Shown: piece by piece, positions 37,583 through 63,992 of the stretch
Layout of the letters: each line of letters opens with the position of its first letter
How positions within the stretch are numbered: the stretch's first letter is position 1
Origin: a virus
Taxonomy: Duplodnaviria > Caudoviricetes
IMG/VR virus record: IMGVR_UViG_3300028888_000005
Span: 1-64,000 of that record
DNA: 64,000 nucleotides
Direction: 5' to 3' (one strand)
Translations under genes and position numbers: made by a program
Notes under the pieces: generated by a model
What the model saw: the letters and a program-made list of their open reading frames with translations, nothing else
What the model was told of the DNA's origin: nothing
The model's database searches: none

Positions 37583-37760
37583 AAAAACCGCGCCGCTTCA
37601 CAGGGGCACGGCTTCAACCTTCTAATACCATTAACATAAACCTTTTATCACTTCATCATGCTTATTACGGCCTAAACATTGATTTCCCAATCAGATAAAA
37701 AACCAATAAACCAATGAATCATTACTACTTTCACTCATGAAAAAATCTTACACTTCTTAC
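37583..37760 (-). ncRNA. candidate sRNA A
   Basis: TATCTTTG box at 37766-37773, U/G-rich body, GUGA-loop terminator at 37583-37613. Confidence 0.6.
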
Positions 37761-38242
37761 GTGTGCAAAGATAGCATGAATATCCGTAAACACCAAATAT
37801 TTATCAGAAAATCATGCAGATTAGTGTAAACTTTTTGCTGTGCAGATAGGGTGCACAGGCACTCGTAGTAGACATTCTGCGCAGAAAAACACCCCCATAT
37901 AGTTCCATTTCTGTGCATATCCCCCACCCTTTTGTACGGAATTTCTTGTTGTGTACAGGTTCACAAAGTGCCCACTATTAGTACAGAATCATTACGTACA
38001 GTACATAATGTACATGCAATAATAGCGTACAATCTGTGCAGAAAATGTACGGTAATTTGTGCAGACGATTTGCAGAGAGTCTATTGTATATCGCGTATGA
38101 GAGAAAGGGTTAATTTGACAGGATTTATTATATGTCGCGTATACGGAAATAGTCCCCCCGTACCCCACCCTATTACAGCGCGAAGGGTAATGCCCCCCTC
38201 TTCGATGCTGTTATGTTCGGGGGCGCATAGGAGAACCAAGTT

Positions 38243-38500
38243 ATGCAGATCAACCTGCAAACCCCAATCAGTGCCCTGAAGGGCCAGTCATTCGTCCTGC
38301 TTCAGGACGGCAGTGTTAAACTCAACGGCACCAACGCCGACCTGTACATCAGTCCTGAGATCTTCGCGATGCTCAAGGCTGAGTTCGCCAAGGCTGAGGC
38401 CAAGCGCAACCTGGGCCAGTTCGTGGTCAACCGCAGGGTTAAGACCGTGAACGGCAAGGAGTTCACGAGGTATGAGGTGCGCTTAGGCATGACGCTCTGA
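38243..38500 (+). CDS. small early protein
   Basis: Strong codon bias; followed by a UUCG terminator. Confidence 0.75.
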   Translation: MQINLQTPISALKGQSFVLLQDGSVKLNGTNADLYISPEIFAMLKAEFAKAEAKRNLGQFVVNRRVKTVNGKEFTRYEVRLGMTL

Positions 38501-38512
38501 GTAAATCCCAAG

Positions 38513-38531
38513 AGCCCTTCGGGGCTTTTTT
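38513..38531 (+). terminator. intrinsic terminator
   Basis: AGCCC-TTCG-GGGCT followed by a T tract. Confidence 0.8.
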
Positions 38532-38673
38532 ATCAATCCCATCAGCCAGATATTGCTATCTTTACATTAACGCAAGGATAACAGCACTGGTTGGTGGGGC
38601 TTACAATTAGCTATTAACTGGCACAAAATAGGCACTGAATGTGTTGAAATGTGCATAAAACTGAAGCAAAACT

Positions 38674-38760
38674 ATGAATATTTACGTTCTTGCTGATGGT
38701 ACACTGAGCACTCCATGCACACCAGAGGATGCACAGCAGTACAACAATGAGTGGAAGTAA
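38674..38760 (+). CDS. 28-aa peptide (not in ORF track)
   Basis: MNIYVLADGTLSTPCTPEDAQQYNNEWK with A-rich leader. Confidence 0.35.
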   Translation: MNIYVLADGTLSTPCTPEDAQQYNNEWK

Positions 38761-38774
38761 AGTACACTCACCGC

Positions 38775-38872
38775 ACTAGATTGAATCGAGCCGTCTGCCT
38801 AAGCAGCCAAATGCTAATAATTTTTTCATGAGTGATTGGGGGATTGCGTTGTGAAACGTGGTCCCCATTTTA
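38775..38872 (+). ncRNA. candidate sRNA B (5' end uncertain)
   Basis: ATTTTTTCATGAGTGA (identical to sRNA A) followed by a GUGA-loop terminator at 38837-38871. Confidence 0.45.
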
Positions 38873-38883
38873 TTTATATAACC

Positions 38884-38946
38884 CGTCAGCCAAGGAGACG
38901 TAAACATACTACCTGATGAAACTTGGACGAAATAGAGATATCGTAG
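38884..38946 (+). ncRNA. hammerhead-type ribozyme candidate with pseudoknot
   Basis: CTAC-CTGATGA-aacttggac-GAAA-TA-GAGA-TA-TC-GTAG; upstream hairpin loop CCAAG is complementary to CTTGG. Confidence 0.65.
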
Positions 38947-39004
38947 AAATAATTCAAAAACAAGAAAGAGGTCATTGCGAGACCATAAACACTGCAAGCA
39001 CACT

Positions 39005-39331
39005 ATGAAGCATTTCACTATGGAGATGGAAGTGGAATACACTGACATGATTTCTGACCTTGTGATCAGTGATCACGTACGTCATTGTCCGAGCTTTGAT
39101 ACTGAAGGTATGATTAGTGCTTTCATTCAAAAATCATTAGGATGCTCCGGATGCGTAGCAACCAAAGAAGCAGAACGTTGGGTATCATCTGAGAATAGTT
39201 TCATCACTGTGAATGGCAAACTCTATTCAATAGAGTGGCAATACGAGGATGAAGACGCCATTAAGTATGAACTCTACGAGACATCAATCAAGTACAAGAT
39301 GGTTGAACTTGAAGAGGACATGCCGTTCTAA
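39005..39331 (+). CDS. small early protein
   Basis: Likely ATG 39005; acidic EEDMPF tail; terminator at 39344-39381. Confidence 0.65.
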   Translation: MKHFTMEMEVEYTDMISDLVISDHVRHCPSFDTEGMISAFIQKSLGCSGCVATKEAERWVSSENSFITVNGKLYSIEWQYEDEDAIKYELYETSIKYKMVELEEDMPF

Positions 39332-39436
39332 CCAGATACACAGCCATTGCGCAGGTATGATGGACCTGCGCTTTGGTTTTTCGTTATCCCATCACCTAAA
39401 CGTGGCGGCAACACGTTAAATACCGACAACAGAGTT

Positions 39437-39721
39437 ATGTTCGCATACTCAACTAACCCGAGTGTTAAGACACAGTTCAGCATCCAGAAGGAGCGTGAGG
39501 AGAAAGCTGCACGTATCGCTGATGAAGTAGCCATGCGCAGAGACATGCAGGCAGCTATTGCACGCTACTACAGTGACGATGAATACTCATCATGGGACCT
39601 TGATGCTGATGTTGAGGCAGCTGTGTTCCATCACCTACACATGAACAAAGGTGACAGAGCCAAACGCCTTCGTGGCCTTCAGAATGCAGTTGTACGTGCA
39701 TTCATGAAGAAGTACGCATAA
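39437..39721 (+). CDS. small early protein
   Basis: Likely ATG 39437 (MFAYSTNP). Confidence 0.7.
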   Translation: MFAYSTNPSVKTQFSIQKEREEKAARIADEVAMRRDMQAAIARYYSDDEYSSWDLDADVEAAVFHHLHMNKGDRAKRLRGLQNAVVRAFMKKYA

Positions 39722-39726
39722 TAGAT

Positions 39727-39876
39727 ATGAACCGTTCCACACTACAGACAGTGGCATTGCTGATTGCGGCAGTGTCACTGCTGTTTCTGCTAAAAGGCAT
39801 TCTGTTTCCCATAGTCCTCCCATTAGCAGGACTGTGGTTAGCCTACAAACTGTTCCGTTATTCACAGCGGAAATGA
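39727..39876 (+). CDS. 49-aa hydrophobic membrane peptide (not in ORF track)
   Basis: MNRSTLQTVALLIAAVSLLFLLKGILFPIVLPLAGLWLAYKLFRYSQRK. Confidence 0.55.
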   Translation: MNRSTLQTVALLIAAVSLLFLLKGILFPIVLPLAGLWLAYKLFRYSQRK

Positions 39877-39899
39877 ACATACACTTACGTGTCTTACCT

Positions 39900-39939
39900 C
39901 AGTGGGATAGTCTATGGTGGAGATTGTCCCACTGTTTTT
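39900..39939 (+). terminator. intrinsic terminator
   Basis: CAGTGGGATAGTCT/AGATTGTCCCACTG followed by TTTTT. Confidence 0.8.
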
Positions 39940-39982
39940 ATGCATTCCATCAACTACAATAATTTAAAACATAGAAAGAACA

Positions 39983-40171
39983 ATGAGGAATTACAAATTA
40001 CTTGGCAAGCTTGAGTCTTATGCATCAAGCTGCCGTGATGCGTTAAACACAGCAAGCAACAAGCTGGCTAATCTACAAAACAAGGTAATGGTTAAGCGCA
40101 TTGAGATGCTTGACAAGGAGCTGGAAGAGCTGCGTGGTAAAGTATCACTACAAATCACTGAAAGCAAATGA
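39983..40171 (+). CDS. small coiled-coil protein
   Basis: ATGA overlap with the next gene. Confidence 0.6.
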   Translation: MRNYKLLGKLESYASSCRDALNTASNKLANLQNKVMVKRIEMLDKELEELRGKVSLQITESK

Positions 40172-40536
40172 AAAAGTATATTATTTCAATGGCAATCCCT
40201 ATTATTCTGGGATGTGCAGTAATATTCTGGCCACGACCTATTAAAGCAGAGCCAGCGCCTATCGTATCCTACAGCGAGGAGGTCATAACTGAAATATTTG
40301 ACCTTGTTTCCCAGTCCGAGAATCTACGTGATGAACTGTACAAAGCCAGTCCTGAGATAGCAGAAGCAGCATTGGTTGAGTCGCCTAACTGTCTCGTCTG
40401 TAAAGCAGCTGCTTTACTCCGCCTCCGCAGTTACGATGAGAACTGGGCAGATACACTAGGTGAGTGTATCGATGATGATGAGCTGGACTTCTGCATCTCG
40501 TACACGCTATATAGTGCCTGCCATGAAGTACATTGA
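40168..40536 (+). CDS. protein with N-terminal signal/anchor
   Basis: MKKYIISMAIPIILGCAVIFW. Confidence 0.6.
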   Translation: MKKYIISMAIPIILGCAVIFWPRPIKAEPAPIVSYSEEVITEIFDLVSQSENLRDELYKASPEIAEAALVESPNCLVCKAAALLRLRSYDENWADTLGECIDDDELDFCISYTLYSACHEVH

Positions 40537-41110
40537 CAGATATCCCGGCTGCACAGGTTGTCCACATCTCAGCTATTGTGGCAAAATGGTGAGCAGCCTA
40601 CGCTTGTGCAACAGCTACGAGAAAGATCAAGAACTAAGCAAGGAAGAGAAGCTTCCGTCAGTGATGGGTCAGCTTATCTATCGCGCCCAAATCAACTATG
40701 ACTTGTGGAAATGCATCCTTGACTTCGCCACAAAAGAAGCCAACGATGGCTATCCTGGTCTTGTTGAGTACCTTGACGAGGCTGTTAACTGTCAGTGCCA
40801 TTTGATTGAAGGCACACCATGGTGTGAGATTGAGCTAGGTGCAAACTCATTCCGTGAGGAAGAGTGGGTAGCGCTTCATCGCATAGTATCCTGTATTCAA
40901 TGGCACTATGAGAATGTCTCCAATTCTGATGTTCAGTACCAATCCTGTGAAGGACTGCAACTGAACTGGGACTATATGATGCCTAAACCATTCACTCCTA
41001 CAAAGGAGTATGAACAGTGGTTTGCAGATAATGTGGAAAATCTCACACCTGAACAAGCATCACGTGCAGTGTGTGTATTCCTTCCATTAAAAGAAGTAGT
41101 GCATGAATAA
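40523..41110 (+). CDS. hypothetical protein with Cys-rich N-terminus
   Basis: GCTGCP...YCG...LC; likely start MKYIDRY. Confidence 0.55.
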   Translation: MKYIDRYPGCTGCPHLSYCGKMVSSLRLCNSYEKDQELSKEEKLPSVMGQLIYRAQINYDLWKCILDFATKEANDGYPGLVEYLDEAVNCQCHLIEGTPWCEIELGANSFREEEWVALHRIVSCIQWHYENVSNSDVQYQSCEGLQLNWDYMMPKPFTPTKEYEQWFADNVENLTPEQASRAVCVFLPLKEVVHE

Positions 41111-41735
41111 CCTAGGTGTGTTCATTTACAATATCGTACTTGACACAACACACACACCAGACGAAAAACAGCTGTACGGAATCTTAGAGCGCTCAGCACC
41201 TGAGTACGAGTTACGCAGGCTTCTGGGCGCTTTTAAGATCCCTTACGTCACATATCTCATCAACAAGATATATGATAAGCGCTATATATGTGTCTGTGCT
41301 GATACCGAGACAGCTAGAGCCCTGTTTATGCATTCCATGATAGGCAGTGCCTGTGCACTCGGCGAGAACAGTGACATAGATGAGCAGAACATCAACCGAT
41401 TCAATAAAGGAGACGTAGAGCACCTGTTCATTACACCGCAGACATATATCCCTGAACTTAAGGATGTTGATGCTGTTGTCTTTGCGCAACCATCAGTAGA
41501 TGATATTGCAACGCTGAACGGCATATTGCCAGCGATGCATGAATCAGAACATCCTAAAGTGTACTTCTTCATGCACCATGATACAATAGACTGTGCACTG
41601 AAGAATGATGTGTGGGACATCAGTCCAACCACAACGGAAGTGGAATTTCCGTATAACCGCTTAACAAAAGAAAGAACATGGACGACGGCTACATCGTTCA
41701 CACAAGAGAAGGCATGTTCCTCGGTGCCTTCCTAG
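41103..41735 (+). CDS. degenerate SF2 helicase C-terminal-like protein
   Basis: NINRFNKGDVEHLFI...DVDAVVFAQP; no ATPase motifs. Confidence 0.4.
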   Translation: MNNLGVFIYNIVLDTTHTPDEKQLYGILERSAPEYELRRLLGAFKIPYVTYLINKIYDKRYICVCADTETARALFMHSMIGSACALGENSDIDEQNINRFNKGDVEHLFITPQTYIPELKDVDAVVFAQPSVDDIATLNGILPAMHESEHPKVYFFMHHDTIDCALKNDVWDISPTTTEVEFPYNRLTKERTWTTATSFTQEKACSSVPS

Positions 41736-41935
41736 ACATTCACGAAGCCGCAAGATTCCGCTATGAATGCAAAGACAGTGATAAGCTCGAGATCTCCAAG
41801 GAGAGCAGCTATCGTCAGAGGTTCCTGAAGCCGGTGCAGGATAAGGTCACTGGTAGGTTATTACAGATAGTCGATAAACGCTATGAAAGAAAAAGAGTTG
41901 AGCAAACAAGCACAGAACTTTGTGAGTGCATGTAA
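41678..41935 (+). CDS. hypothetical protein
   Basis: ORF track; true 3' end may be shorter. Confidence 0.45.
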   Translation: MDDGYIVHTREGMFLGAFLDIHEAARFRYECKDSDKLEISKESSYRQRFLKPVQDKVTGRLLQIVDKRYERKRVEQTSTELCECM

Positions 41936-42062
41936 AGGTGGCAGCATCAACACCATCCACGGACTGTTACATTATCAGTCACAGTCCATTAAGGATGAGC
42001 TTATGGTGCATTATAAAGCCGACAGCTATGACGAACTTGCACTCAGGCTGTCACAAGGTTAG
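41883..42062 (+). CDS. 59-aa hypothetical protein (not in ORF track)
   Basis: MKEKELSKQAQNFVSACKGG...LALRLSQG, ends in TAG. Confidence 0.45.
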   Translation: MKEKELSKQAQNFVSACKGGSINTIHGLLHYQSQSIKDELMVHYKADSYDELALRLSQG

Positions 42063-42282
42063 AATTGTACCTGACACCAGGGTCTCTGCATTCACCTATG
42101 CGGAGGCCCTTAAATATCTGAAGGAGCATAACCATCTGTATCGTGATTTCACATGGGACATGTGGCTATTCCTTCAGCTAGACCCTGACAAAGAGCTCCT
42201 GCAAGCTGTGGATGACTACTGGATGCCGTCAGCTTATGCAGAACTGGAAAATAAATATCCAGAATTGGCTGAGAAAACGTAA
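42028..42282 (+). CDS. hypothetical protein
   Basis: C-terminal part of ORF 41926-42282; start uncertain. Confidence 0.45.
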   Translation: MTNLHSGCHKVRIVPDTRVSAFTYAEALKYLKEHNHLYRDFTWDMWLFLQLDPDKELLQAVDDYWMPSAYAELENKYPELAEKT

Positions 42283-42317
42283 GAATATTCTTAACTTTGC
42301 ATATTCAATAAGGCAAG

Positions 42318-43559
42318 ATGGAATTAGAACGTACATCATCGTTACTCGATAAGACGATGGATGAGATCCATGAGAACATCACTCGTCTTGAACAGGGGAA
42401 TATGAACTGTATTCCCTATCCTTTCCAGAGAAGTCGCAAAGACTTCCCTGGCATTGAGCGTCGTTGTTACTATGCTGTGATGGCTAATACCAAAGTTGGC
42501 AAGTCACAGTTCGTCAATGATGTGTTCGTCTTTGAACCCATCATGGAGATGTACTATGGCGCAACTGACCTTGAGGTTAATATCCTCTATTGTGCCCTTG
42601 AGGAGACTCCTGAGCGCATCATGCAGCGCTTTATGGCGTGGTTGCTGTACAGGGAAAGCGGAGGTAAGGTCCGTGTATCCCCTCGACAAATACGCTCCAC
42701 GCTGCACAAGTGTCCGCAAGAGGCACTTGATATGCTGCAAGATGAACATATCAAAGAGATTCTTGAGTTCTTTGAGAACCATATTACTTTCCTGCCACGC
42801 AGTGAATCCAACCCGACAGGTATCTACAATTACTGTAAAGCCTGGGCAGAAGAGCGTGGTGACACGATCTACAAGGAATATGTAACTAAAGATGTGTTTG
42901 ACCAAGAGACCACAAACAAGGTGTTTGAGCGGTATATCCCGCACAATCCTGACGCATTCAATATCGTGATCATCGACCCCATTAACCGCGTCGATAGAGA
43001 ACGAGGGATGGATGAGCGCCAGAGTATGCGTAAGCTCTCAGAGTATTGCTACAGGTATCTTCGCAATGACTACCTGTTCTCTGTTGTCATCGTACAGCAG
43101 CAAACCTTTGGCAGCTATTCACTTGATGCCCGCAAAATCAACCATTTTGAGCCCAACATGGGTGATGCTGGTGGTAGCAAGGAAATCCTGCAAGATGTGG
43201 ATGTAGCCATGTCGCTCTACAATCCGAGTGAGTTCGGTGTTGAGAGCTATGGCGGCTATGACATCCGCAAACTAGGTAAACGCAGCCGATTCGTGAAGTA
43301 TATGGCTGCACGAGATGGCGAAGGCAGTGGCATCACGTCACTGTTCTTCGATGGATGCTGCGCTCAATTTAATGAGCTCCCTACTCCTGGTAATGCGGCC
43401 GAGATGCAGGCAGTGTACAACTACTGCGAACAGATGAATCTCAAGCACACACCAGAAGAACTAGCTGCACTGAATCCGTTTATACGGAAATACCAGCAGC
43501 CACAACAGCCTAAACAAGGCATAATTGACAGTTTTATTAACTTAATGTTTAGTCATTAA
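42318..43559 (+). CDS. DnaB-like replicative helicase
   Basis: ANTKVGKS Walker A, ALEE, IVIIDP, VVIVQQ, AARDG; TAACTTTG box at 42292-42299. Confidence 0.85.
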   Translation: MELERTSSLLDKTMDEIHENITRLEQGNMNCIPYPFQRSRKDFPGIERRCYYAVMANTKVGKSQFVNDVFVFEPIMEMYYGATDLEVNILYCALEETPERIMQRFMAWLLYRESGGKVRVSPRQIRSTLHKCPQEALDMLQDEHIKEILEFFENHITFLPRSESNPTGIYNYCKAWAEERGDTIYKEYVTKDVFDQETTNKVFERYIPHNPDAFNIVIIDPINRVDRERGMDERQSMRKLSEYCYRYLRNDYLFSVVIVQQQTFGSYSLDARKINHFEPNMGDAGGSKEILQDVDVAMSLYNPSEFGVESYGGYDIRKLGKRSRFVKYMAARDGEGSGITSLFFDGCCAQFNELPTPGNAAEMQAVYNYCEQMNLKHTPEELAALNPFIRKYQQPQQPKQGIIDSFINLMFSH

Positions 43560-44143
43560 TGGCAGTAACAGTAAACAATGCTCCGTCTTCACTCGATGAG
43601 CTTGGTGTGCTTTTGGTCCTAAAAGCAATGAGTGAGACAAAGGCAAAAAGCGCAACAGCGTACTTCACTAGAACGCTAAACAAGCTCATTAATCAAGGAT
43701 TAGTAATCTCGCAAGACGGCAGAATGGTCATCACTGAACAGGCGCAATCCATCATGGACACAATCGATGAAGGAGAAAAGCCCACAAACCTCACAGCACT
43801 GGCATCGCAGATGCGTGAAGTGTATCCCGCTGGTGAACAACCAGGTACAGGACACTTGTGGCGTTGTTCAGTCCCGACAGCCGTTGAAAGGCTTACTAAA
43901 CTCATCAAGAAGAAGAACTTCTCATTCACAGCCGAAGAAGCCATTGAAGCAACCAAGGCGTATGTGAACAGCTACAGCAACGGAGCCAAAATCCGCACCA
44001 TGCAGTACTTCATCTTCAAGAACGTCATTGAAGACGGCGAGGAAGTGATGAAGAGTGAACTCATGGAATGGATTTACCGTATCCGTGACGGCATTGAAGC
44101 ACAGCAATCCTATCAGCAAACAGAATTATCTAACTTTTATTAA
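43559..44143 (+). CDS. conserved crAss replication-region protein
   Basis: wHTH-like N-term, YP...GT...WR motif, coupled to the helicase gene. Confidence 0.55.
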   Translation: MAVTVNNAPSSLDELGVLLVLKAMSETKAKSATAYFTRTLNKLINQGLVISQDGRMVITEQAQSIMDTIDEGEKPTNLTALASQMREVYPAGEQPGTGHLWRCSVPTAVERLTKLIKKKNFSFTAEEAIEATKAYVNSYSNGAKIRTMQYFIFKNVIEDGEEVMKSELMEWIYRIRDGIEAQQSYQQTELSNFY

Positions 44144-44158
44144 TCAATAACCAATCAA

Positions 44159-44446
44159 ATGAAGATTATAATTGTAACATTCGGCGTTGCAGAAGCCAGA
44201 CCCAACTGTACCAAAAAGTACCGTTTCCGTACCAACTCAGACCTGAAGCCCGGTGACGTGCTTCGTTCACGTGACTACGACAGCGAGATTACTGTTGTGG
44301 ATGTACTCGAGAAGGACTATAAGTACTACAACCAAATCAATGGTGAGATGAGCAACGAGATTACCTCGACTTTCCAGTGGCCCATCAAGACCCTCGAAGT
44401 GTGTGAGAAGAAGAACGATATCGTTTACGCAACAATAGTGAAGTAA
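44159..44446 (+). CDS. hypothetical protein
   Basis: Operon packing. Confidence 0.6.
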   Translation: MKIIIVTFGVAEARPNCTKKYRFRTNSDLKPGDVLRSRDYDSEITVVDVLEKDYKYYNQINGEMSNEITSTFQWPIKTLEVCEKKNDIVYATIVK

Positions 44447-45036
44447 TGAGTGAGACAACAGCACAGAGCGTTTACGCAACGCTAAGCAGAATCAACGTCA
44501 ACGAACACGTTGAGCAGAAGAACGGCTTAACCTACCTCAGTTGGGCATGGGCATGGGGTATTGTCAAAGAGCACTACCCCAATGCTACGTACACTATTTA
44601 CGAGAATGCCCAAGGCTGGAACTACCACACCGATGGCAAGACGGCATGGGTGAAGACTGGTGTTACCATCCAAGATATTGAACATATTGAGGAACTTCCT
44701 GTCATGGACTTCCGCAATCAGTCCATTCCCGCCGATAAGGTAACCAGCTTTGATGTCAATAAGGCTATTCAGCGCTCATTGACCAAGGCTGTTGCCCGTC
44801 ATGGCCTCGGCCTCTACATCTATGCAGGTGAAGACTTACCTGAGGAAGAGGTAAGAAAGGCTCGTGCAACGTCTGAATCAGACCTGCCAACAGCTATCGC
44901 TGAACTCGATGCCTGCAAGACTACAGAAGATGTGAGCAAGGTCTGGGAGAAGTGGAAGAAGATTCACCCTGAATATGTCAAGCAAGGACATAAGTTCTTC
45001 GTTCACTCCAACTCACTTGACGTAGAGTTCGCATAA
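44446..45036 (+). CDS. Sak3/DUF1071-like ssDNA-annealing protein
   Basis: LTYLSWAWAW, LPVMD, NKAIQRSLTKAVARHGLGLYIYAGEDLP. Confidence 0.85.
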   Translation: MSETTAQSVYATLSRINVNEHVEQKNGLTYLSWAWAWGIVKEHYPNATYTIYENAQGWNYHTDGKTAWVKTGVTIQDIEHIEELPVMDFRNQSIPADKVTSFDVNKAIQRSLTKAVARHGLGLYIYAGEDLPEEEVRKARATSESDLPTAIAELDACKTTEDVSKVWEKWKKIHPEYVKQGHKFFVHSNSLDVEFA

Positions 45037-45090
45037 TCAACATCAACTAACAACTAATTATCAATTCATTTATTAAACATTATTTCAATT

Positions 45091-46017
45091 ATGAAGGAAT
45101 TTAAGAACAACGAGAAATCTCAGATCTTGGCAATGGCACGCTTCCTGTACACCAACTACACAATCAAGCGTGAGAAAGTGGAGAACCAGCTCAAGACAGC
45201 CGAGGATAAGTTCGACTTTAACGGCAAGCTTGAGGCTTATCGTAAGAAGCTTGAGGAGCAGTACAACGAAAGAACCAAGAGCCTTCGTGCCAAGATCGAG
45301 GAATACAAGCAGCAGGAAGAGGTCATGAGTGGCCCCATCCGTACTCTGCTGCTCGACAATCATCCTATCGAAGAAGTGGTCAACGTAGGCTATGTAAGCG
45401 AAGGTGATGGTAAACGCAGGCTCACTGCTACGTTCAAGTATCCAGATACCATCCTGCCTCCTGAGGATAACCTCGGCATTGAAGGTACGGTTGACGAAGG
45501 TCCCGAGTATGACGGTGCTGGTTTCAACGGTAGTGCTGAAGAGCTTGCAGCTGACATAGAGCAAGAGCGCCTTGCTGACGAGGCCCGTGCAGATGCTATG
45601 CATGACTGCGAGGAGCGTGAAGCTGACATCGATGTTGATATGCAGGGCGAGTTCAAGCCTATCGAGGAAGGCCCTGCTATGCCTCCTATGGACGAGGTAA
45701 TGCAGGAAGTTGACGAGCTCGTAGACGAGGCTGCTGCCCTGACTGAGGCTTACGGTGACGAGAAGCCTGACTACTACATCCCCGAGGAGACCAAGGAGAT
45801 GGGTGACAGCTTTGTTGAAGCTATGCAGCAAGTCGTAGATTCCGATCCTGTATCACAGGAAGAGATGGAACAGCTTGAGCGTGAAGCCAACGAGATGGAA
45901 GCCATGTTCGATGATCCCAGCACTGATGACGATGACAGTGAGTCTCCTTGGGACGATGATGACGACGCATCCGATGAGGATGGCGGTGAAGATGACGATA
46001 ACTTTGACATCTTGTAA
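45091..46017 (+). CDS. coiled-coil protein with long acidic C-terminal region
   Basis: About 180 D/E-rich C-terminal residues; terminator at about 46032-46067. Confidence 0.75.
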   Translation: MKEFKNNEKSQILAMARFLYTNYTIKREKVENQLKTAEDKFDFNGKLEAYRKKLEEQYNERTKSLRAKIEEYKQQEEVMSGPIRTLLLDNHPIEEVVNVGYVSEGDGKRRLTATFKYPDTILPPEDNLGIEGTVDEGPEYDGAGFNGSAEELAADIEQERLADEARADAMHDCEEREADIDVDMQGEFKPIEEGPAMPPMDEVMQEVDELVDEAAALTEAYGDEKPDYYIPEETKEMGDSFVEAMQQVVDSDPVSQEEMEQLEREANEMEAMFDDPSTDDDDSESPWDDDDDASDEDGGEDDDNFDIL

Positions 46018-46133
46018 TATATAGTGACCTGTGGGGTGGTTACGCGTCTGTGTGCCACCCCATTTTTATTACTAATAACAAAATATTTATTCACAAACCA
46101 AACATTTTTATTAACTATTTAAACGTTTAAATT

Positions 46134-49282: not shown

Positions 49283-49284
49283 TC

Positions 49285-51524: not shown

Positions 51525-51617
51525 TATTCGCATCTTTATGAGAAAATAGTTGGATAAACATTCGATAATCTCGATAATTTCAAATAACTTTGCAGAAGTT
51601 ATTCATTTATCGGGAAT

Positions 51618-52079: not shown

Positions 52080-52090
52080 AACAAAACAAC

Positions 52091-56277: not shown

Positions 56278-56491
56278 GGCAATGGCGCAATTTGCTGCGT
56301 CACTAGAGACTGCCCATGACGAGTGGGCAAAGAACAACGTACCTAAATCCACGCTTGATGCGGTAGAGCATCTTGTCAGCAAGTACGGAGGTATAGACAA
56401 CCTGCTGATGATGCTGGCTGTGCTTATCACAAAGCCAGAGGATAAGGACGATGAGTATCCACCAATCAACTTCCTGAAAAGTGAAGGGTAA
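56261..56491 (+). CDS. hypothetical protein
   Basis: ORF track and packing. Confidence 0.55.
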   Translation: MKNACKAMAQFAASLETAHDEWAKNNVPKSTLDAVEHLVSKYGGIDNLLMMLAVLITKPEDKDDEYPPINFLKSEG

Positions 56492-56903
56492 ACCAGTGAA
56501 CCGAGTTGAGCTCCTGCACGCTATCAATGAATGGTGTGCAGGGGTATTCAACCCGTTGATATCATTTCCTGATGTCAATGGGTATCCTAATGTAGTGTAT
56601 CTGTTTGACAAGAACAACAGAGAGATGCTGGAAGATGCCGAACTGCTCATCCAGCATATACAGAAAAGACTGAAACAACCAGTAATGGTATTCATTGAAC
56701 CGTTTGATAACGCACCAAAAGCAGCGTTAACATATAAGCAATGGATAGAGGCAGGAGACAAGATGAAAGCAATAGACTTAAACACAAATGAACAGGTATA
56801 TGTAATGCCTGTATATGATGACAACGGCAGTATAGCCAAGTATGTAAGCAGTAACAAATCGTATAACCCAACTGATCTTAAATTATTTGACAATCAACTA
56901 TGA
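56481..56903 (+). CDS. hypothetical protein
   Basis: ORF track and packing. Confidence 0.55.
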   Translation: MKGKPVNRVELLHAINEWCAGVFNPLISFPDVNGYPNVVYLFDKNNREMLEDAELLIQHIQKRLKQPVMVFIEPFDNAPKAALTYKQWIEAGDKMKAIDLNTNEQVYVMPVYDDNGSIAKYVSSNKSYNPTDLKLFDNQL

Positions 56904-57541
56904 AGAAGTTTTTATTAATGCTGTTCTTGAGTGCAGCTTTTACAACTCAAGCAATTGAACAGGTAACAGTCTCTTATGGGCCTAACTGGAATGGGTGTGT
57001 TACTTTACCTGCGACAGAAGACACTGTTACATTGAGAGTGGAGATTCATCACTGGGATTACGTTCTTGATGAATTTTCATTAGAGTTCTGTATGCCTGAT
57101 GGATTAGAACTTATGTCAATCAGCAGAGGCAGAGACCTTAATGTGGTGGTATTTGATGAACAAGGTGAGCCTTATACTTATTTAACGCCTATCCAAGTGG
57201 ATGATAATCATGTATCATGCAAGATAACTGATCTAGGCTATGAAGATTTAGATGGTGATGGAACCTTTGAATCTTATGGAACAATTAAATTCCCTGAAGG
57301 CAACCAAGAGGTATTACTCATCAATGTAATTATACATGATAACTTTGAGAAAGGAGTTATTACTGTTAATGGATACTTTAACTCTACTAGTGATCAACGA
57401 CTATATACTCCTACCTGCAGATTATTTGAGTTTACTTCTTATTCATTCGTTATGATAGACTATAAAAATGGAGATGTGAATCACGATGGAGAAGTAACTA
57501 TATCTGATGTAACAACACTTATTGACAATTTAATGAGATAG
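56900..57541 (+). CDS. secreted cohesin-like beta protein with C-terminal dockerin repeat
   Basis: Signal peptide MKKFLLMLFLSAAFTTQA; GDVNHDGEVTISDVTTLIDNL. Confidence 0.7.
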   Translation: MKKFLLMLFLSAAFTTQAIEQVTVSYGPNWNGCVTLPATEDTVTLRVEIHHWDYVLDEFSLEFCMPDGLELMSISRGRDLNVVVFDEQGEPYTYLTPIQVDDNHVSCKITDLGYEDLDGDGTFESYGTIKFPEGNQEVLLINVIIHDNFEKGVITVNGYFNSTSDQRLYTPTCRLFEFTSYSFVMIDYKNGDVNHDGEVTISDVTTLIDNLMR

Positions 57542-57543
57542 TT

Positions 57544-58134
57544 ATGAACTACTACATTCAAGGCGATGCAGCAAACGCCGACAAAATCAAGGCTGCGTTT
57601 GAAAAACTGGGGTATGACACATCAAGGCATCTTTTCAATGTCAAGTCAGTTTTGTACTTCACACTTGATGGTAGAATTAGGGCTACAACTTGCAACTGTA
57701 CTCCTGCTATCATCAAGACCCACCCCGACTACCAGGAGTTGGAGTTACCAGTTCAACCCAAGTTCAAGGTTGGTGATTCGTTGCAATCAGGTTCTCATTT
57801 TACCAAGATTCTATCCATAAACCTTGAAGAAGGGAGGTATTATTGCGATAATCACATCATTTCATTTAAGAACCAAGACTTGTGGCATCTTGCGCCGAAG
57901 CCTCACTATGACATCAAGAACTTCAAACCATTTCAGAAGGTGCTTGTGAGGGATGCAGATGATGGTAAGTGGATGGCTGCTTTTTATAGCCATTACATGT
58001 ATGAGGAGAAAGGTTATCCTTGCCAATTTGCTACGATTGGTACTGATATTTATGAACAGTGCATTCCCTTTGAAGGGAATGAGCATTTGTTTAGAACTAT
58101 CGATATGTGTGATGAAATGTACATTAACTGGTAA
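57544..58134 (+). CDS. phage hypothetical protein
   Basis: FKPFQKVLVRD...QCIPFEGNEHL. Confidence 0.7.
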   Translation: MNYYIQGDAANADKIKAAFEKLGYDTSRHLFNVKSVLYFTLDGRIRATTCNCTPAIIKTHPDYQELELPVQPKFKVGDSLQSGSHFTKILSINLEEGRYYCDNHIISFKNQDLWHLAPKPHYDIKNFKPFQKVLVRDADDGKWMAAFYSHYMYEEKGYPCQFATIGTDIYEQCIPFEGNEHLFRTIDMCDEMYINW

Positions 58135-58331
58135 AGATTATGGACTCAACGGATTGAGGTTAATACACATCACGCATCCAGTGTATTCCAAGACCACATT
58201 GCGCCTGACATGAAGGAGTTTCGTGATATTGAGAAGAAAAACCAAGAACTTCTTATGCCTGTCATTAAATGGCAAAGGAGATTAGTTGGTGCTGATAACC
58301 CAACGTGTGAAACAACTAACAAGGACTGATC

Positions 58332-58520
58332 ATGAAGTTTATATTTCTGATTTTACTGATAACAGGAGTATCCTTGTTATCCTATTATAAGATGTTTGAC
58401 GCTCTAACCATTACTGGGGGTTGGGCATGGTTTGGACTTTTATGTATCATCTACTTTGTAGGCGATACGTTGGAAGAACTTGGTAAGTGGATTGGAAAGA
58501 GAAGAAACAAAAAGGCTTGA
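58332..58520 (+). CDS. 62-aa two-TM membrane protein
   Basis: Hydrophobic with a basic C-terminus. Confidence 0.6.
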   Translation: MKFIFLILLITGVSLLSYYKMFDALTITGGWAWFGLLCIIYFVGDTLEELGKWIGKRRNKKA

Positions 58521-58578
58521 GCGATGCCCAAGCCAAGTGTCTTAAAGAAGTATCTGACAAAAGTTCAATTATGTCAGT
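58505..58578 (-). ncRNA. candidate antisense sRNA
   Basis: TTTG-N19-TATCTTTG promoter, 5' hairpin, terminator GGCTTGGGC-ATC-GCTCAAGCC-TTTTT. Confidence 0.6.
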
Positions 58579-58614
58579 GCAAAGATAACAATTATTTTAT
58601 AAATCACAAAAAAT

Positions 58615-59037
58615 ATGAAGGTAAAATTTGATTTTAGTCCTTGCTTGACCTTTCACGGTTGGGAGGACTACAACTACTACAATATCATTCCAAGACTAAC
58701 CCTGTTTACTGCACCAAGATTCCGCAGCAACTGGGACGAGACACTTATCGGCAAGCACTTCGATTTAACTATAGGGTGGTTGGTGTTTGAGGTTAGCGTC
58801 GGGATGGAATGTCTTTGGAAAGAACCTGCTGCTCCTAAGTTCAATGTTGGAGACCATATTTGCAACGAGGATTGCCATGATGCGGTTGTTGAAGCGGTAA
58901 ACTTTGACAAAGTGAGTGATGGTCATTGGTGTTACGAATGTATTGACCTTGATCCAAATAGTGAGGATTACAACAAGTATTTCTACATCAATGCCGAGAT
59001 TGAACATTTGTGGTACTTTAAAACCAGAAAGTTATGA
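58615..59037 (+). CDS. hypothetical protein
   Basis: ORF track. Confidence 0.6.
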   Translation: MKVKFDFSPCLTFHGWEDYNYYNIIPRLTLFTAPRFRSNWDETLIGKHFDLTIGWLVFEVSVGMECLWKEPAAPKFNVGDHICNEDCHDAVVEAVNFDKVSDGHWCYECIDLDPNSEDYNKYFYINAEIEHLWYFKTRKL

Positions 59038-59318
59038 TAGCAAGGATTAAAGCGACAGGTAAATTTATTGATGTAGTTCCTTATGGCGATGAGTATGTTT
59101 AGTTGTTCCCTGAAGGATCTTTTAAATTTTACACAAAAGATGAATTGGACTTTCGTGTGGACATTGATTGGCAGCACTACCGCATCCAAGCGGCTATTGA
59201 ATTTGCTGCGCAGATACTTGGAAATCACGGAGGCGCACCTACATCCGTTGCCAAAGATGCGGTTGATTATGCCGATGCTTTGGTGGCAGAACTTCAAAAG
59301 AAAGGAGAACAACAATGA
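59034..59318 (+). pseudogene. gene interrupted by in-frame TAG (59100-59102)
   Basis: MIARIKATGKFIDVVPYGDEYV*LFPEG...; ATGA overlap at the start. Confidence 0.65.
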
Positions 59319-59482
59319 AACCGAGTAAGGGAATAGTAGTCACATTCCTTAAAGGGAAGGACGGATTGTGGCATTCATATACAGCATACGCTGAGGATGT
59401 TGACTATGAAACAATGGTCAAATTCATGGATTGTATAGGCAATGCGGTTGATGTGCTTAACAAGAAAGGAGGAGAGAAATGA
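59315..59482 (+). CDS. 55-aa protein (not in ORF track)
   Basis: ATGA overlaps at both ends. Confidence 0.6.
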   Translation: MKPSKGIVVTFLKGKDGLWHSYTAYAEDVDYETMVKFMDCIGNAVDVLNKKGGEK

Positions 59483-60147
59483 ACTTCGGCGACGTGTTTA
59501 TGGCATTCTTCTTAGGGATGCCACTTGACAAAGAGGAATTTGATAAATTCTTCGACGAGTATTTTGTCAAGTACTTCCAAGATAATCCTAACGGCTATGA
59601 CGAGGCAATGAGGCTTATTGACGAGCAATTCCCAGCAGATTCAAAAGATATGATAAGAGAGAGAATGAATAAGATTTACGAACAATCAAAGAAAGGAGGA
59701 AAAATGATAGCAACTAACATCGAACAGTCAAAGCATCTGCTTGAACTTGGGTTAGACCCAAAGACAGCGGATATGTTTTGGAAGTATTCTGCATCATTAG
59801 GCAACACCGACATCAACGGAAAGATTGCCGTAAGTTACCACGATAATCTTTTTGTCGGTAAATATGATGGTGCTATCCCTGCTTGGTCACTCACCGCATT
59901 GCTTGGGGTGATGCCGAAAGTCATCGTACATGATATGGACAAACACGTCCTTTGCTTTAAATATGCGGAAGGTGTCGCACCATTCATGTACTATGTTGTA
60001 GAAAGTGGAAGAAACAAAGGTAAGTTGATTAGGTTTGACAATGGCAGATGTGTGCCCGATGCCTATGACGCTTTAGACGCAGCCTACACAATGGTGTGCT
60101 GGCTCCTTGAACAAGGACTGATTAAGAAAGGAGGCAACGATGAGTAA
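59479..60147 (+). CDS. hypothetical protein, probable fusion of two small genes
   Basis: Internal AAGAAAGGAGG followed by ATG at 59704 (MIATNIEQSK). Confidence 0.6.
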   Translation: MNFGDVFMAFFLGMPLDKEEFDKFFDEYFVKYFQDNPNGYDEAMRLIDEQFPADSKDMIRERMNKIYEQSKKGGKMIATNIEQSKHLLELGLDPKTADMFWKYSASLGNTDINGKIAVSYHDNLFVGKYDGAIPAWSLTALLGVMPKVIVHDMDKHVLCFKYAEGVAPFMYYVVESGRNKGKLIRFDNGRCVPDAYDALDAAYTMVCWLLEQGLIKKGGNDE

Positions 60148-60304
60148 GCCAATGGTTGTAATTCCTAAAGAGGAGTACGATAGATTGCTTGGCATTGAGC
60201 GTGGATTGATGGATTTGCTTGAGCGTCAACGGGCAGAATATACCCAGACTATACATTGCCAAATGGCACAACAGGCGATAAATATAGTAACACAACAGAT
60301 GTAA
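60140..60304 (+). CDS. 54-aa protein (not in ORF track)
   Basis: MSKPMVVIPKEEYDRLL... Confidence 0.55.
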   Translation: MSKPMVVIPKEEYDRLLGIERGLMDLLERQRAEYTQTIHCQMAQQAINIVTQQM

Positions 60305-60309
60305 TAATC

Positions 60310-60492
60310 ATGGATGAGATTGAAATTAAAATCACATTTTCAGACAACCTTTGTGGTTGCGAGATAACCAAGAGTGGAAAAACCGAACAATTTGAGAAAC
60401 TTAAGCGCAAAGAACAAATTCACGTTTGCAATGCTTTGGCGCAGTTCTACAAACTGTTTGTTCCGGTTATTAAGGAAGATGACAATGAGTGA
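60310..60492 (+). CDS. hypothetical protein
   Basis: Likely start MDEIEIK. Confidence 0.55.
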   Translation: MDEIEIKITFSDNLCGCEITKSGKTEQFEKLKRKEQIHVCNALAQFYKLFVPVIKEDDNE

Positions 60493-60748
60493 ACAAGAAA
60501 TAATAGACAACTGGCTTAATATGAGGCAACAACCAGTACAACTGGCTACACAAGACGCTTGCTGGCAGCACTACCACATTCAGGCTGCTATTGCTGCGAT
60601 GCAAGCAGAATTAAGCAATCCTAACAATACTTTTATGATGTGTGAAGATAAGCGGACTATCATTGTGTAGAGTGCTGTTGATTATGCAGATGCTTTGATT
60701 GAAGAACTTCAAAAGAAAACAGGACAAGATGACAACAGAAGAGATTAA
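60485..60748 (+). pseudogene. gene interrupted by in-frame TAG (60668-60670)
   Basis: WQHYHIQAAI...IIV*SAVDYADALIEELQKK; paralogous to 59034-59318. Confidence 0.7.
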
Positions 60749-60834
60749 ACAAGAAGCCGCTAAGCATTACCTGCCAGGATCAGCAAGTTACGTTGCATAC
60801 TGTCGTGGTGCTGAATGGGCATTTTCAAAGAAAG

Positions 60835-61200
60835 ATGAGAGTACCGAGTAACCTAATGGAGCTGGTCAATGATACAGTGACCAGGGTATGTGCAGCTACT
60901 GGTGTGTCAAAGTGCAGAATAATGTCCCGAGAACGAAGTGCGCCTGTGGCTACTGTAAGGTTCATGGTGTATTACATCCTATGCAAGCACCATAAGCTTT
61001 CCTGCTCACATGTCGGTAAGGCGTTAGGCAGAACACATGCCACAGTTATGCATGGCATTAAAGTGGCTGAATACTGGCTTAATCCTGGTATTAGAGACTG
61101 GGATAGTAAACTTAACGGAGAAAAGCTAACGCAGATAATAAACGAACTAAATTCAGAAAACGAAGAACTAAAACAACAAAACGATGCTGACAAACCTTGA
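60835..61200 (+). CDS. DnaA domain-IV-like HTH protein
   Basis: SRERSAPVATVRFMVYYI...VGKALGRTHATVMHG. Confidence 0.75.
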   Translation: MRVPSNLMELVNDTVTRVCAATGVSKCRIMSRERSAPVATVRFMVYYILCKHHKLSCSHVGKALGRTHATVMHGIKVAEYWLNPGIRDWDSKLNGEKLTQIINELNSENEELKQQNDADKP

Positions 61201-61384
61201 ACAGCAAACGCTAAGCCTAATTAAGGCTGCATGTAAACAGTACATCAGTGAGGAGGACAAATGGGAGCAGAGGCGATGGGAGCTGGCTACTCGCCTATAT
61301 GCTGATGTGTGGAACGGAAACGCTGAAGCCGCTATACAGGCTGCTGATGGTTTCATAGAACAATACAAAAAGACACTGAAATGA
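61184..61384 (+). CDS. hypothetical protein (WEQRR..LA family)
   Basis: Distant paralogue of the TAG-interrupted genes. Confidence 0.6.
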   Translation: MLTNLEQQTLSLIKAACKQYISEEDKWEQRRWELATRLYADVWNGNAEAAIQAADGFIEQYKKTLK

Positions 61385-61938
61385 AACAAGAAACTATTAT
61401 TCACCTATTTATAACGAACGCGTGCAGACATAATTGTCCGTTATGCTGCAATAAGCTGTATAATATCGATGAGATACCTGTGGTGACAGTTGAATTGCTC
61501 AAGAAGGCAACAACTGTATGTCTAACAGGCGGCGAGCCATTCAGTATTAATCCTATGATACTTGGCCCGTTTATCAGAAACTTACGCAACCAGTACAAAA
61601 ACATTGAGAACCTGTACATATACACAAGCGGGTATGATCTTATGATTGCTAAACTTATGTTACCAAGTCTTATAAAAGAAGGGTATATCGATGGTATTAA
61701 TGTAGCGCCTAAGGACAATGAGAACTGGAACTCATTCTACTCTGCGTTGCTTACACATCCTGATATCTTTCGTGGAAAGTCTAACAGGTTGTATGTGTTT
61801 GACGAACAACGCAGTAAGTTTGACAATCTAAGCATCTCATTTAAAGATGTGAACATTGAGGTCCTTGGCCGTAAATGGCAACAGACATTCAATACACCAG
61901 ACAATGAACATTTCGTAAGACTACCAATTCTATTTTGA
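61381..61938 (+). CDS. short radical SAM protein
   Basis: CRHNCPLC (CxxxCxxC), LTGGEP, YTSG. Confidence 0.85.
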   Translation: MKQETIIHLFITNACRHNCPLCCNKLYNIDEIPVVTVELLKKATTVCLTGGEPFSINPMILGPFIRNLRNQYKNIENLYIYTSGYDLMIAKLMLPSLIKEGYIDGINVAPKDNENWNSFYSALLTHPDIFRGKSNRLYVFDEQRSKFDNLSISFKDVNIEVLGRKWQQTFNTPDNEHFVRLPILF

Positions 61939-61940
61939 GC

Positions 61941-62141
61941 ATGGAACTATACAGATTAGTTATCATCTTCAGCAAGACCCACAATTATGAGGGCGTCTAT
62001 AACGATAAGAGTGCCGCCAGCAGGGCATTCAATGAGGCTATAGATCATCCTTTTGCCGTTGGTGCCAACCTCTATGAGTGTGAGTGGGTGAACAACAAGT
62101 TAGAGGACAAGAACCGTATTATAAACTGGATAAAGAAATGA
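61941..62141 (+). CDS. hypothetical protein
   Basis: Operon packing. Confidence 0.55.
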   Translation: MELYRLVIIFSKTHNYEGVYNDKSAASRAFNEAIDHPFAVGANLYECEWVNNKLEDKNRIINWIKK

Positions 62142-62362
62142 ACAAACTGAAGACGACATATAAGCTGCTGAGCCGCTTTGGATTTAGCAACCATAGTAAT
62201 ACGGTTCCTGGTGCAGTATGGTATATATGGCCGTCATTGTCAGTCCTATATATCCGTGACTTTAATAAAGAGGTATCCGTTTCATTATCATGGTTATGCT
62301 TTAGTGTGTATTTCAGAGTAACTAAATTAAGAATTTACGAACAAGATGTTTCAACCGAGTGA
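62138..62362 (+). CDS. hypothetical protein
   Basis: ATGA overlap. Confidence 0.5.
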   Translation: MNKLKTTYKLLSRFGFSNHSNTVPGAVWYIWPSLSVLYIRDFNKEVSVSLSWLCFSVYFRVTKLRIYEQDVSTE

Positions 62363-62534
62363 AGAAGTAAAAACAGCGTGTCGAGCATATATCGACAGCG
62401 TTAAAGGTGAGGCATGGTATAACCCTGACCTCGATGATATCATCCTAGACGCATTCTGGGAAGGTGCAATGTGGTACAAATACGTTTATCCTAATAATAA
62501 CAACAATGACAAGAGCAGCGAAAACAAAGATTAA
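62346..62534 (+). CDS. hypothetical protein
   Basis: DAFWEGAMW motif. Confidence 0.55.
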   Translation: MFQPSEEVKTACRAYIDSVKGEAWYNPDLDDIILDAFWEGAMWYKYVYPNNNNNDKSSENKD

Positions 62535-62763
62535 CTTACAGACATGCCAACACTGTGAGCATTACATGTGCGGATTCTATAAGTCCACACAACTCATCCC
62601 TGGCAATGTGTGCAACCTGCGCAAAAAGGAAATGAAGCATATGAAGAATATGTTTCCCAAGCGTGTGTATTACTACAAGGCAAAGCCAGATGGCTATTGC
62701 AATGAGTTCAAAGAATGGAAACAACCTACTATCAATGAAATCTATGGAGACAACAAAGACTGA
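62506..62763 (+). CDS. Cys-rich small protein
   Basis: CQHCEH...C...C. Confidence 0.55.
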   Translation: MTRAAKTKINLQTCQHCEHYMCGFYKSTQLIPGNVCNLRKKEMKHMKNMFPKRVYYYKAKPDGYCNEFKEWKQPTINEIYGDNKD

Positions 62764-63049
62764 TATTGGACTGAGGGAATCAGCTAAGCTGTTCTCAGAA
62801 GCTATGGCTGAACGCTACTTTAAGTACGCAAAGAAGGGCAGCAGTATGTTGCTGATTACAGGAGAAGACGGCGAACTGTCAAGCTGTATGCTTGGAAAAG
62901 GAGGAGATTTGATTAACGCAATAGCGTCATCAATGTCTGAAACTGAAGAAATCAACAGGATTGTGGGCACGGCATTCATGCTGGCTAACAATGAAAGTTT
63001 AGCGGAACTTTTAAAACAAGACAATGACAATGGAACAGGCGATGTATGA
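62744..63049 (+). CDS. hypothetical protein
   Basis: Likely start METTKTD. Confidence 0.55.
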   Translation: METTKTDIGLRESAKLFSEAMAERYFKYAKKGSSMLLITGEDGELSSCMLGKGGDLINAIASSMSETEEINRIVGTAFMLANNESLAELLKQDNDNGTGDV

Positions 63050-63317
63050 AACAACAATTACAGTTACAGCACTCCTTTGCTTAGCTGCTGTGTATATCTT
63101 CAGTTTAGTTGTTAAGCAAGGTATCAATAAGCGTAAGCTGGCTGAATGCAAGGAAACCATCAGGAAGCTGGAGTTCAGCCTTGACGAGGCTTCCAGAGTG
63201 CTAGAAGCACAGAACAATCAGATCAGTGTACTTAACAGGAAACTGAAGGAGAGTAGACTGATAACAACAATAGAGGACCTAAACAAAGCACAAGATGAGC
63301 AAAGAACCATACTATAA
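63024..63317 (+). CDS. TM plus coiled-coil protein
   Basis: N-terminal hydrophobic helix. Confidence 0.55.
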   Translation: MTMEQAMYETTITVTALLCLAAVYIFSLVVKQGINKRKLAECKETIRKLEFSLDEASRVLEAQNNQISVLNRKLKESRLITTIEDLNKAQDEQRTIL

Positions 63318-63819
63318 CAGCTACCAACGGGCTGACTACATCAAGCTACAGGCGTATAAGAACGTCATAAGTGAACTGCATAAGCAGCGTAACGTTTTTG
63401 TCAGGACAGGACTTACAGACGCAGCGCAGAGAGTCTGGGGTGAGATATCTATGGCACAGCAGGAACATGATGCACTGAAGCAGAAAATGGTCCATGACAG
63501 AGAAACAATGGCCGCAAGTCTGCTGGAAGTGATTCTGATTGCCAATCTTGCATACGCCAAAGCGATGGAGTTTAGCGAAGTGGTGAAGAAATGCACAGGC
63601 TCGTCGGAGGACGCTCTTGCTCTGGACGTACAGCGTATCTGTAAGATATGCGAAGAAGTGGCACTCAGCGTAGACACCGCAGGCAATGACAAGCAGAGCA
63701 ATGCGTTTAGCGATGTTATTGACGAGATAGAGGAGCAGTATAACAAACAGCTGACACCTATCGTTGACGAAGTGATGCAGAAGTTCAGAAAAACTAAGCG
63801 GTATCAGTCATTATTCTGA
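63295..63819 (+). CDS. helical hypothetical protein
   Basis: 174-aa ORF. Confidence 0.65.
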   Translation: MSKEPYYNSYQRADYIKLQAYKNVISELHKQRNVFVRTGLTDAAQRVWGEISMAQQEHDALKQKMVHDRETMAASLLEVILIANLAYAKAMEFSEVVKKCTGSSEDALALDVQRICKICEEVALSVDTAGNDKQSNAFSDVIDEIEEQYNKQLTPIVDEVMQKFRKTKRYQSLF

Positions 63820-63861
63820 CGAAGAAACTTGCATAGTTTACGAATGATTATTACCTTTGTG

Positions 63862-63992
63862 TGTTGTTTTTCATCATAACTATACTTTTTGCTATTGGTT
63901 TTTATAATGTAGTATGAGGATTAAGAGTTCATATTCATAGATAGAAGATGTGTTATTATACCCCACCGTCTGTGAAGATAGTGGGGTTTTTA
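63862..63992 (+). ncRNA. candidate sRNA C
   Basis: TACCTTTG box at 63852-63859, TTTTTCAT, GUGA-loop terminator at 63961-63991. Confidence 0.65.

Follow-up and report, generated by a model that had tools for sequence, protein, structure and literature searches.

A FopS-like small RNA of a host family, and two likely diverged companions, in a temperate crAss-like phage

Can a bacteriophage carry its own set of small RNAs (sRNAs) derived from those with which its hosts repress translation? The question is raised by three U-rich elements, A, B and C, in the first 64,000 nt of IMG/VR record IMGVR_UViG_3300028888_000005, a complete virus record of 100,589 bp with 127-bp direct terminal repeats. We call this 64-kb stretch the window, and coordinates refer to it. 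An initial annotation, made by reading the letters, had proposed that the three elements are related phage sRNAs complementary to ATGAAAA-type start regions, and had named the FopS family of Bacteroides thetaiotaomicron as a parallel. We find that the sequence of A demonstrably identifies it as the phage version of an sRNA from a FopS-like family found in Bacteroidales hosts. We further think it probable, with moderate confidence, that A, B and C form a host-derived set of FopS-type sRNAs, A being the clear copy and B and C likely diverged members, and that they would serve the phage as repressors acting on start regions.

FopS RNAs are paralogous repressor sRNAs of 65-70 nt that are made from canonical promoters in B. 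thetaiotaomicron; their 5' ends pair with the susC mRNA start region and block its translation (Ruttiger et al. 2025, PMC11697453). Element A (37583-37758, minus strand) is matched by nhmmer (E 4.8e-8) and by R1, a covariance model built from host copies of the family, which gives it 46 bits (E 2.6e-6 when all 64 kb are scanned and filters are off). Its anatomy is that of a two-module, FopS-like sRNA gene of about 176 nt, adjoining the phage attachment site (attP). The promoter box, TATCTTTG (37766-37773, minus), is of the host -7 type, could be read directly, and sits 20 nt before the U-run. The 5' seed, AUUUUUUCAUGAGUGA (37731-37746, minus), follows and is identical in B. Further on comes a 29-nt core, AAGGUUUAUGUUAAUGGUAUUAGAAGGUU (37616-37644, minus), which is a second FopS-like seed and agrees letter for letter with the core that is invariant among the host copies, AAGGTTTATGTTAATGGTATTAGA; this core is also exact in A', the counterpart of A in the related phage G001, and is absent from B and C. 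The terminator (37583-37611, minus) is a stem-loop at 37588-37611 with a GUGA loop, followed by U5. Relative to the host family the 5' seed of A is altered to UUUUUUCAUGAG, and the first module is degenerate, with CAUUGGUUUAUUGGUUU where the family has CAUCGGUUUUUCAUGGUAUUAG; AAUGGUAUUAGAAGGUU is carried internally. We rejected the idea that A is a small-peptide gene. Its open reading frames (ORFs) have 15 (minus) and 14 (plus) codons and those of A' have 2 and 19, and because the small ORFs of neither strand are conserved between A and A', the A-type unit is non-coding.

The family to which A belongs is numerous in its hosts. A 20-mer of the core occurs exactly in at least 120 stretches of species-representative genomes, at 3-5 copies per genome, and among the matches listed nearly all core-bearing stretches are rumen or gut metagenome-assembled genomes (MAGs) labelled Muribaculaceae, Sodaliphilus, Prevotellaceae, Porphyromonadaceae or Bacteroidales. 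Among 300 genomes drawn evenly from the order, the exact 20-mer was confined to the centre genome, and the exact-core family is therefore clade-restricted. The host unit, of about 150 nt, comprises a TAnnTTTG box, a 5' seed, a hairpin with a GNRA loop, the core (invariant columns in alignment A1) and a terminator that again has a GNRA loop. Host 5' seeds are of type 1 (UUUUUCAUGGUAUUAG...) or type 2 (UUUUUCAUCAAGAC / CAUCAUUAC), the box lies 18-19 nt ahead of CATGGTA, and the spacing from box to U-run is 6 nt. Compensatory changes are found at 8 of 13 pairs, for example at columns 71/83 (C-G 39 versus U-A 36), and this covariation shows that the host family is an RNA with two hairpins. On one host contig (L066), two almost identical family copies lie inverted at 1803-1953 (plus) and 7047-7199 (minus), about 5.2 kb apart. 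The CAUGAG seed of A, B and A' is absent among about 105 promoter-proximal host seeds and from 870 kb of host flanks, and looks phage-specific.

How does this family relate to FopS itself? The curated gathering cut-offs in Rfam are 56 bits for FopS (RF04319) and 80.4 bits for BTnc231 (RF04180), and the window has no match to Rfam at gathering scores. Both modules of the host unit match RF04319, one with 34.7 bits and the other with 25, which falls short of the cut-off in each case, and the unit matches RF04180 over the full length of the model at 30.6 bits (E 8e-5, below the 80.4-bit cut-off). Judged by these alignments, the host family is a two-module ('dimeric') relative of the FopS RNAs of B. 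thetaiotaomicron. The parallel drawn was apt as to kind: the FopS consensus starts with GUGUUUUUCAUGGUAUUAG and ends in a GUGAA-loop hairpin, the two traits that had been singled out. It did not extend to homology of A, B and C as a group. When the suggested check against Rfam sRNA models was run with E values of up to 10 allowed, none of the three elements gave a FopS match, the matches being those of the host unit.

Units like A occur in other phages as well. G001 is the sole IMG/VR relative found through the integrase (64% identical). It has the same attP core, but A is not beside it; a BLAST search with the region returned a 24-nt exact match elsewhere in G001, and this is A'. There a TACCTTTG box is followed by the seed UUUUUUUUCAUGAGG (with UUUUUUUUCAUGAGGUAAAG near-identical to the 5' seed of A), by the 24-nt core common with A, and by a GUGA-loop terminator. 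The terminator stems of A and A' differ, and the fold and the loop are kept. R1 gives A' 60.7 bits and other phage contigs 40-61 bits. A 21-mer of the core is exact in seven IMG/VR contigs, on the tRNA strand and within or beside tRNA arrays. In contigs L012-L018 the FopS-like core stands on the same strand after the 3' end of a tRNA or tRNA-like sequence, with no host promoter box and, in L012, a gap of 4 nt; this arrangement suggests that the 5' end of the sRNA is released by tRNA processing. On stretch L141, G001 has two back-to-back FopS-like units on opposite strands, at 4227-4374 (minus) and 4782-4921 (plus), and its second unit is diverged (R1 21.7 bits, two CUGUGAAG-loop hairpins). The seed pattern TTTTTTCATGAGNNAAAG was found in 40 stretches of IMG/VR, among which an R1 match occurs, besides G001, only in L186, about 1 kb from the seed word. 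That match, at 4928-5051 (minus) of a phage contig, is a single-module FopS-like unit right after a gene end, made up of CUUUUCAUAGUAAAUUGGUUUAGGUUAA, a hairpin and U7, and scores 27.3 bits with R1. The human-gut crAss relatives cr85_1, cr106_1 and cr112_1 have weak FopS matches, at most 20.5 bits.

These comparisons bear on whether A has any role in the phage. It could be passively carried host DNA, a decaying moron, as the degenerate first module (CAUUGGUUUAUUGGUUU instead of CAUCGGUUUUUCAUGGUAUUAG) and the different position of the unit in this phage and in G001 would lead one to expect. Against that, the promoter, core, terminator and new 5' seed are intact in two phages with integrases 64% identical, the terminators keep fold and loop across stems that differ, eight further phage contigs carry the core, and the host tRNA-Ser attB loci have no family member in their neighbourhood. 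We therefore regard passive carriage as quite unlikely. Capture of A by faulty excision is unsupported, since a search of the 1.5 kb next to host tRNA-Ser(GGA) loci brought up no family member.

Do B and C belong with A? The features described for the three elements were confirmed, each at the place given for it. TTTTTCAT is present in each, and 3 of its 6 occurrences genome-wide, on both strands, are in A, B and C. When folded, all three end in a strong hairpin that has a U-GUGA-A loop and is followed by a U tail; a GUGA-type loop is found in 4 of about 10 strong terminators of the genome, the fourth standing after the attP tRNA-Ser fragment (37404-37432). The TAnnTTTG boxes of A and C are where they had been placed, that of C being TACCTTTG (63852-63859, plus). 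The 16-mer common to A and B, ATTTTTTCATGAGTGA, has exactly two genome copies (37731-37746, minus, and 38820-38835, plus). An intergenic shared word of at least 16 nt arose in 0.3% of 300 first-order Markov simulations, giving P ~0.003 for this one. The 11-mer TATTGGTTTTT ascribed to A and C is present too, at chance level: words of 11 nt are common to 10 segment pairs, and the simulations gave 5.9 +/- 2.4 such pairs.

A composite of TAnnTTTG, 3-25 nt and T5+CAT occurs genome-wide at A and C only, and 0.010 are expected per genome (mean of 200 third-order Markov simulations); this promoter-seed layout is non-random. A canonical sigma-ABfr promoter (TAnnTTTG) directly ahead of the seed is a FopS trait, found in A and C and not in B. 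U5CAU lies within about 110 nt upstream of all three non-tRNA GUGA-loop terminators, where composition alone predicts about 0.007 per site. U5-6CAU is retained in A, B and C, and the next bases are GAGUGA in A and B and CAUAAC in C, the FopS R1' consensus being GUGUUUUUCAUGGUAUUAGAU. A further candidate, D (about 81552-81619, beyond the window), was rejected as an sRNA; two ORFs of 4609 and 2478 codons, also outside the window, converge on it, and its hairpin is a terminator that works in both directions.

The 16-bp word shared by A and B might alternatively be a DNA site, an inverted repeat (37731-37746 / 38820-38835) used in recombination or as an operator and flanking a 1.07-kb regulatory segment. 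Its copies are indeed inverted, and they bracket a divergent promoter region with CTGTGCAGA motifs next to the integrase. The repeat stops at 16 bp, however, and G001 has this word inside a FopS-like unit, a long way from its integrase region, so that this explanation is extremely improbable.

Element B (38816-38875, plus) is a short module of about 60 nt: the seed at 38820-38835, a GUGA-loop terminator at 38839-38866 and a U tail. It closes an early cassette on the 3' side, downstream of an ORF of 28 codons (38675-38761), and is a candidate for a single-module sRNA of the 3' untranslated region (UTR) type, or is just a terminator. R1 aligns it as seed, hairpin and tail at 11.1 bits (E 6, rank 4 in the window). 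Element C (63865-63992, plus) is a stand-alone unit of about 127 nt, a length which, like that of A, follows from the positions of box and terminator. Its box, of the host -7 type, stands 7 nt before the U-run; the seed, UUUUUCAUCAUAAC (63867-63880), is similar to host type-2 seeds such as UUUUUCAUCAUUAC, and the terminator (63961-63986) has a GUGA loop and U5. C scores 13.2 bits with R1 (E 2.5, rank 2 in the window). The genes that flank it have no match in IMG/VR, and a C-like unit is absent upstream of the G001 orthologue of the downstream gene.

Taken together, these features suggest how the set may have arisen and how it may work. A would derive from the multi-copy FopS-like family of the probable hosts, keeping the invariant internal seed and the GUGA-loop terminator while its 5' seed was altered to UUUUUUCAUGAG; since it has a promoter of the host sigma type and an intrinsic terminator but lacks a conserved ORF, it would be a complete sRNA gene. 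In B the altered seed would run straight into the GUGA-loop terminator with which an early transcript ends. C would join a host promoter to a 5'-terminal U5CAU of the second host seed type and to a GUGA-loop terminator. By analogy with FopS, the U-run and CAU may pair with AUG-AAA-AAA start regions in mRNAs of exported or outer-membrane proteins and block translation initiation, the bases after CAU selecting the target. The CAUGAG seed, present twice, would then be a phage-specific choice, and the remaining seed one of the second host type. Deployment may differ as well, with A expressed from the prophage end under a host promoter, B from the early transcript and C from its stand-alone unit; since A lies at a prophage end and has a host promoter, action in lysogens is plausible. 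A further step, which we offer only tentatively, is that these re-seeded FopS mimics silence particular outer-membrane or exported proteins of the host, possibly the phage receptor, in an RNA-based takeover or superinfection exclusion.

The search for targets gave a general rather than a particular answer. In host flanks, AUG-anchored complements of the A/B seed of at least 9 nt are found at 18 of 516 first ATGs and at 8 of 2792 internal ones, and are thus about 12-fold commoner at MKK-type starts; the matches at host starts belong to signal-peptide proteins. This enrichment shows only a general fit of the seeds to MKK-type starts. In five family-bearing genomes near-perfect complements of the seed occur at control-level frequency, and the two best are not gene starts. 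With RNAduplex, applied to 3308 ATG sites in 872 kb of host flanks, GC-rich internal sites dominate and there is no enrichment at true starts.

Several of our results weigh against a set of three FopS-type repressors. The 11-13 bits that R1 gives B and C are no better than those of a 5' UTR at 30486-30539 (11.3 bits), and the bodies of B and C align with the family consensus no better than shuffles do. The 3' module of A reaches 14.5 bits with RF04319 (cut-off 56), and B and C give nothing. B lacks its own promoter box, and the cassette in any case needs the B hairpin as its terminator; the terminator of C may double as that of the operon upstream. In the five family-bearing genomes no real gene start carries a near-perfect complement of the A/B seed. 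Among the start regions of the phage itself none stands out, and seed duplex energies are no better than with shuffled seeds. The proposed family link accordingly holds for A, a FopS-like homologue, and B and C are at chance with both covariance models and with sequence alignment; such scores do not establish homology of B and C.

It could then be that A alone is an sRNA gene, and that B and C are 3' UTRs with intrinsic terminators, their GUGA-loop hairpin being common in phage and hosts and their U5CAU functionless. Besides the chance-level scores of B and C, this explanation can draw on the attP tRNA terminator, which has the same GUGA loop without any seed, on the direct termination by B of the cassette with the 28-codon ORF, on the lack of any other terminator between a 174-amino-acid gene and C, and on the conservation of neither B nor C in G001. 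It leaves unaccounted for that the A-B 16-mer covers exactly the seed (P ~0.003), that the layout of box, 7 nt and U5CAU at C recurs in the genome only at A (0.01 expected), and that U5CAU precedes all three non-tRNA GUGA-loop terminators at the distance and against the expectation given above. We judge it somewhat unlikely. The case for B and C rests on architecture, namely the seed identity of A and B, the box-seed spacing and type-2 seed of C, and the U5CAU before every non-tRNA GUGA-loop terminator, and we conclude that B and C are most likely strongly diverged units of the same design as A.

A different role can be imagined for A, and perhaps for C, that of a decoy which soaks up a host RbpB-type protein, or competes with the host FopS-like RNAs, and so shifts the FopS regulon. 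A retains a 29-nt segment in which the host copies show no variation at all, as expected of a protein-binding or shared-target site, and the FopS RNAs of B. thetaiotaomicron are bound in their 5' part by the protein RbpB, which counteracts them (PMC11697453). Yet the altered 5' seed is kept across two phages and recurs in B, a pattern that speaks for a separate target, and we consider a decoy unlikely. Repression through the altered seeds remains the reading that we prefer.

The carrier is a temperate crAss-like phage (Crassvirales, near Steigviridae/Asinivirinae). In the major capsid protein it shares 69% identity with the uncultured phage cr85_1 (Crassvirales, Steigviridae, Asinivirinae), and in the window the structural genes are on the minus strand, to about 37 kb, and the replication genes on the plus strand beyond that. 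A tyrosine integrase (36130-37326, minus; PF13102 and phrog_1 matches) is preceded by the attP core, the 3' part of a tRNA-Ser(GGA) (37430-37496, minus), which is identical in G001 and within which no full tRNA was detected. Because the integrase has this tRNA-Ser(GGA) fragment beside it, we read the virus as a temperate phage with a standard tRNA attP. The fragment matches the tRNA-Ser of a Bacteroidales MAG (G005) at 100% over 63 nt and that of a Sodaliphilus MAG (G006) at 99% over 67 nt, and both MAGs also hold the FopS-like sRNA family. The hosts of the phage are probably of the Muribaculaceae/Sodaliphilus-type clade of Bacteroidales.

The surroundings of A and B contain further repeated words. 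Between A and the rightward genes, at 37809-38065, CTGTGCAGA / TCTGCACA motifs are repeated, and a 37-nt direct repeat has copies at 37852 and 38009; the repeats of this region are probably integrase arm-type or repressor sites. About 13-16 nt past every early-gene terminator there is a CCCATCAGCC-like box (38536, 38880, 39386 and 39944, plus), and about 115-130 nt past each box a conserved AACTATGAA-type start context. The box is common to both phages, occurring in G001 (stretch L003, reverse strand) at about 2330, 2560 and 2975, and could be a phage-specific early promoter or operator. A G-rich word of about 32 nt, CGCTGTAATAGGGTGGGGTAYGGGGGGACTAT, is likewise kept in both (38150-38185 here, 3375-3410 in L003 of G001). 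It lies just 5' of the first rightward gene, though the genes themselves differ between the two phages.

In gut Bacteroides, FopS sRNAs have a central part in regulating the synthesis of glycan transporters. If the elements described here are expressed, crAss-like phages would reprogram the surface or nutrient-uptake proteins of their hosts by RNA, and this, if true, would bear on receptor availability, on lysogenic conversion and on the persistence of very abundant gut and rumen viruses. Moreover, phage copies with changed seeds yield simple predictions of seed and target.

Phage sRNAs that act on host mRNAs have a precedent in the DicF-type sRNAs of enterobacterial prophages, which have their own promoter and terminator and repress host mRNAs by pairing near start codons. 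They differ from A in having no sequence relation to it, in belonging to another phylum and in being Hfq-dependent. Nearer in sequence is BTnc231 (RF04180), which resembles the host unit in its length of about 154 nt, its FopS-like U-rich 5' end and its two hairpins with GUGAG-type loops, and which is not mentioned in the account of FopS (PMC11697453). The closest parallel is FopS. Common to both are the TAnnTTTG promoter (in A and C), a seed of U-run and CAU that is 5'-terminal or nearly so, a GUGA(A)-loop terminator with a U tail, the many copies per host genome, and the complementarity of the seed to AUG-AAA start regions. The elements differ from FopS in size and build (about 176 nt in two modules for A and about 127 nt for C, against 65-70 nt), in the bases after CAU and in scores that stay under the cut-off. 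They differ also in their carriers: FopS has been described as conserved within Bacteroidaceae, its sequence being remarked in one phage (PMC11697453), whereas the carriers here are a crAss-like phage and a host clade outside that family. FopS as a kind of sRNA was already known; what is new is that hosts outside Bacteroidaceae have a two-module family of this kind, that a temperate crAss-like phage carries the core of that family exactly, and that the phage copies are re-seeded.

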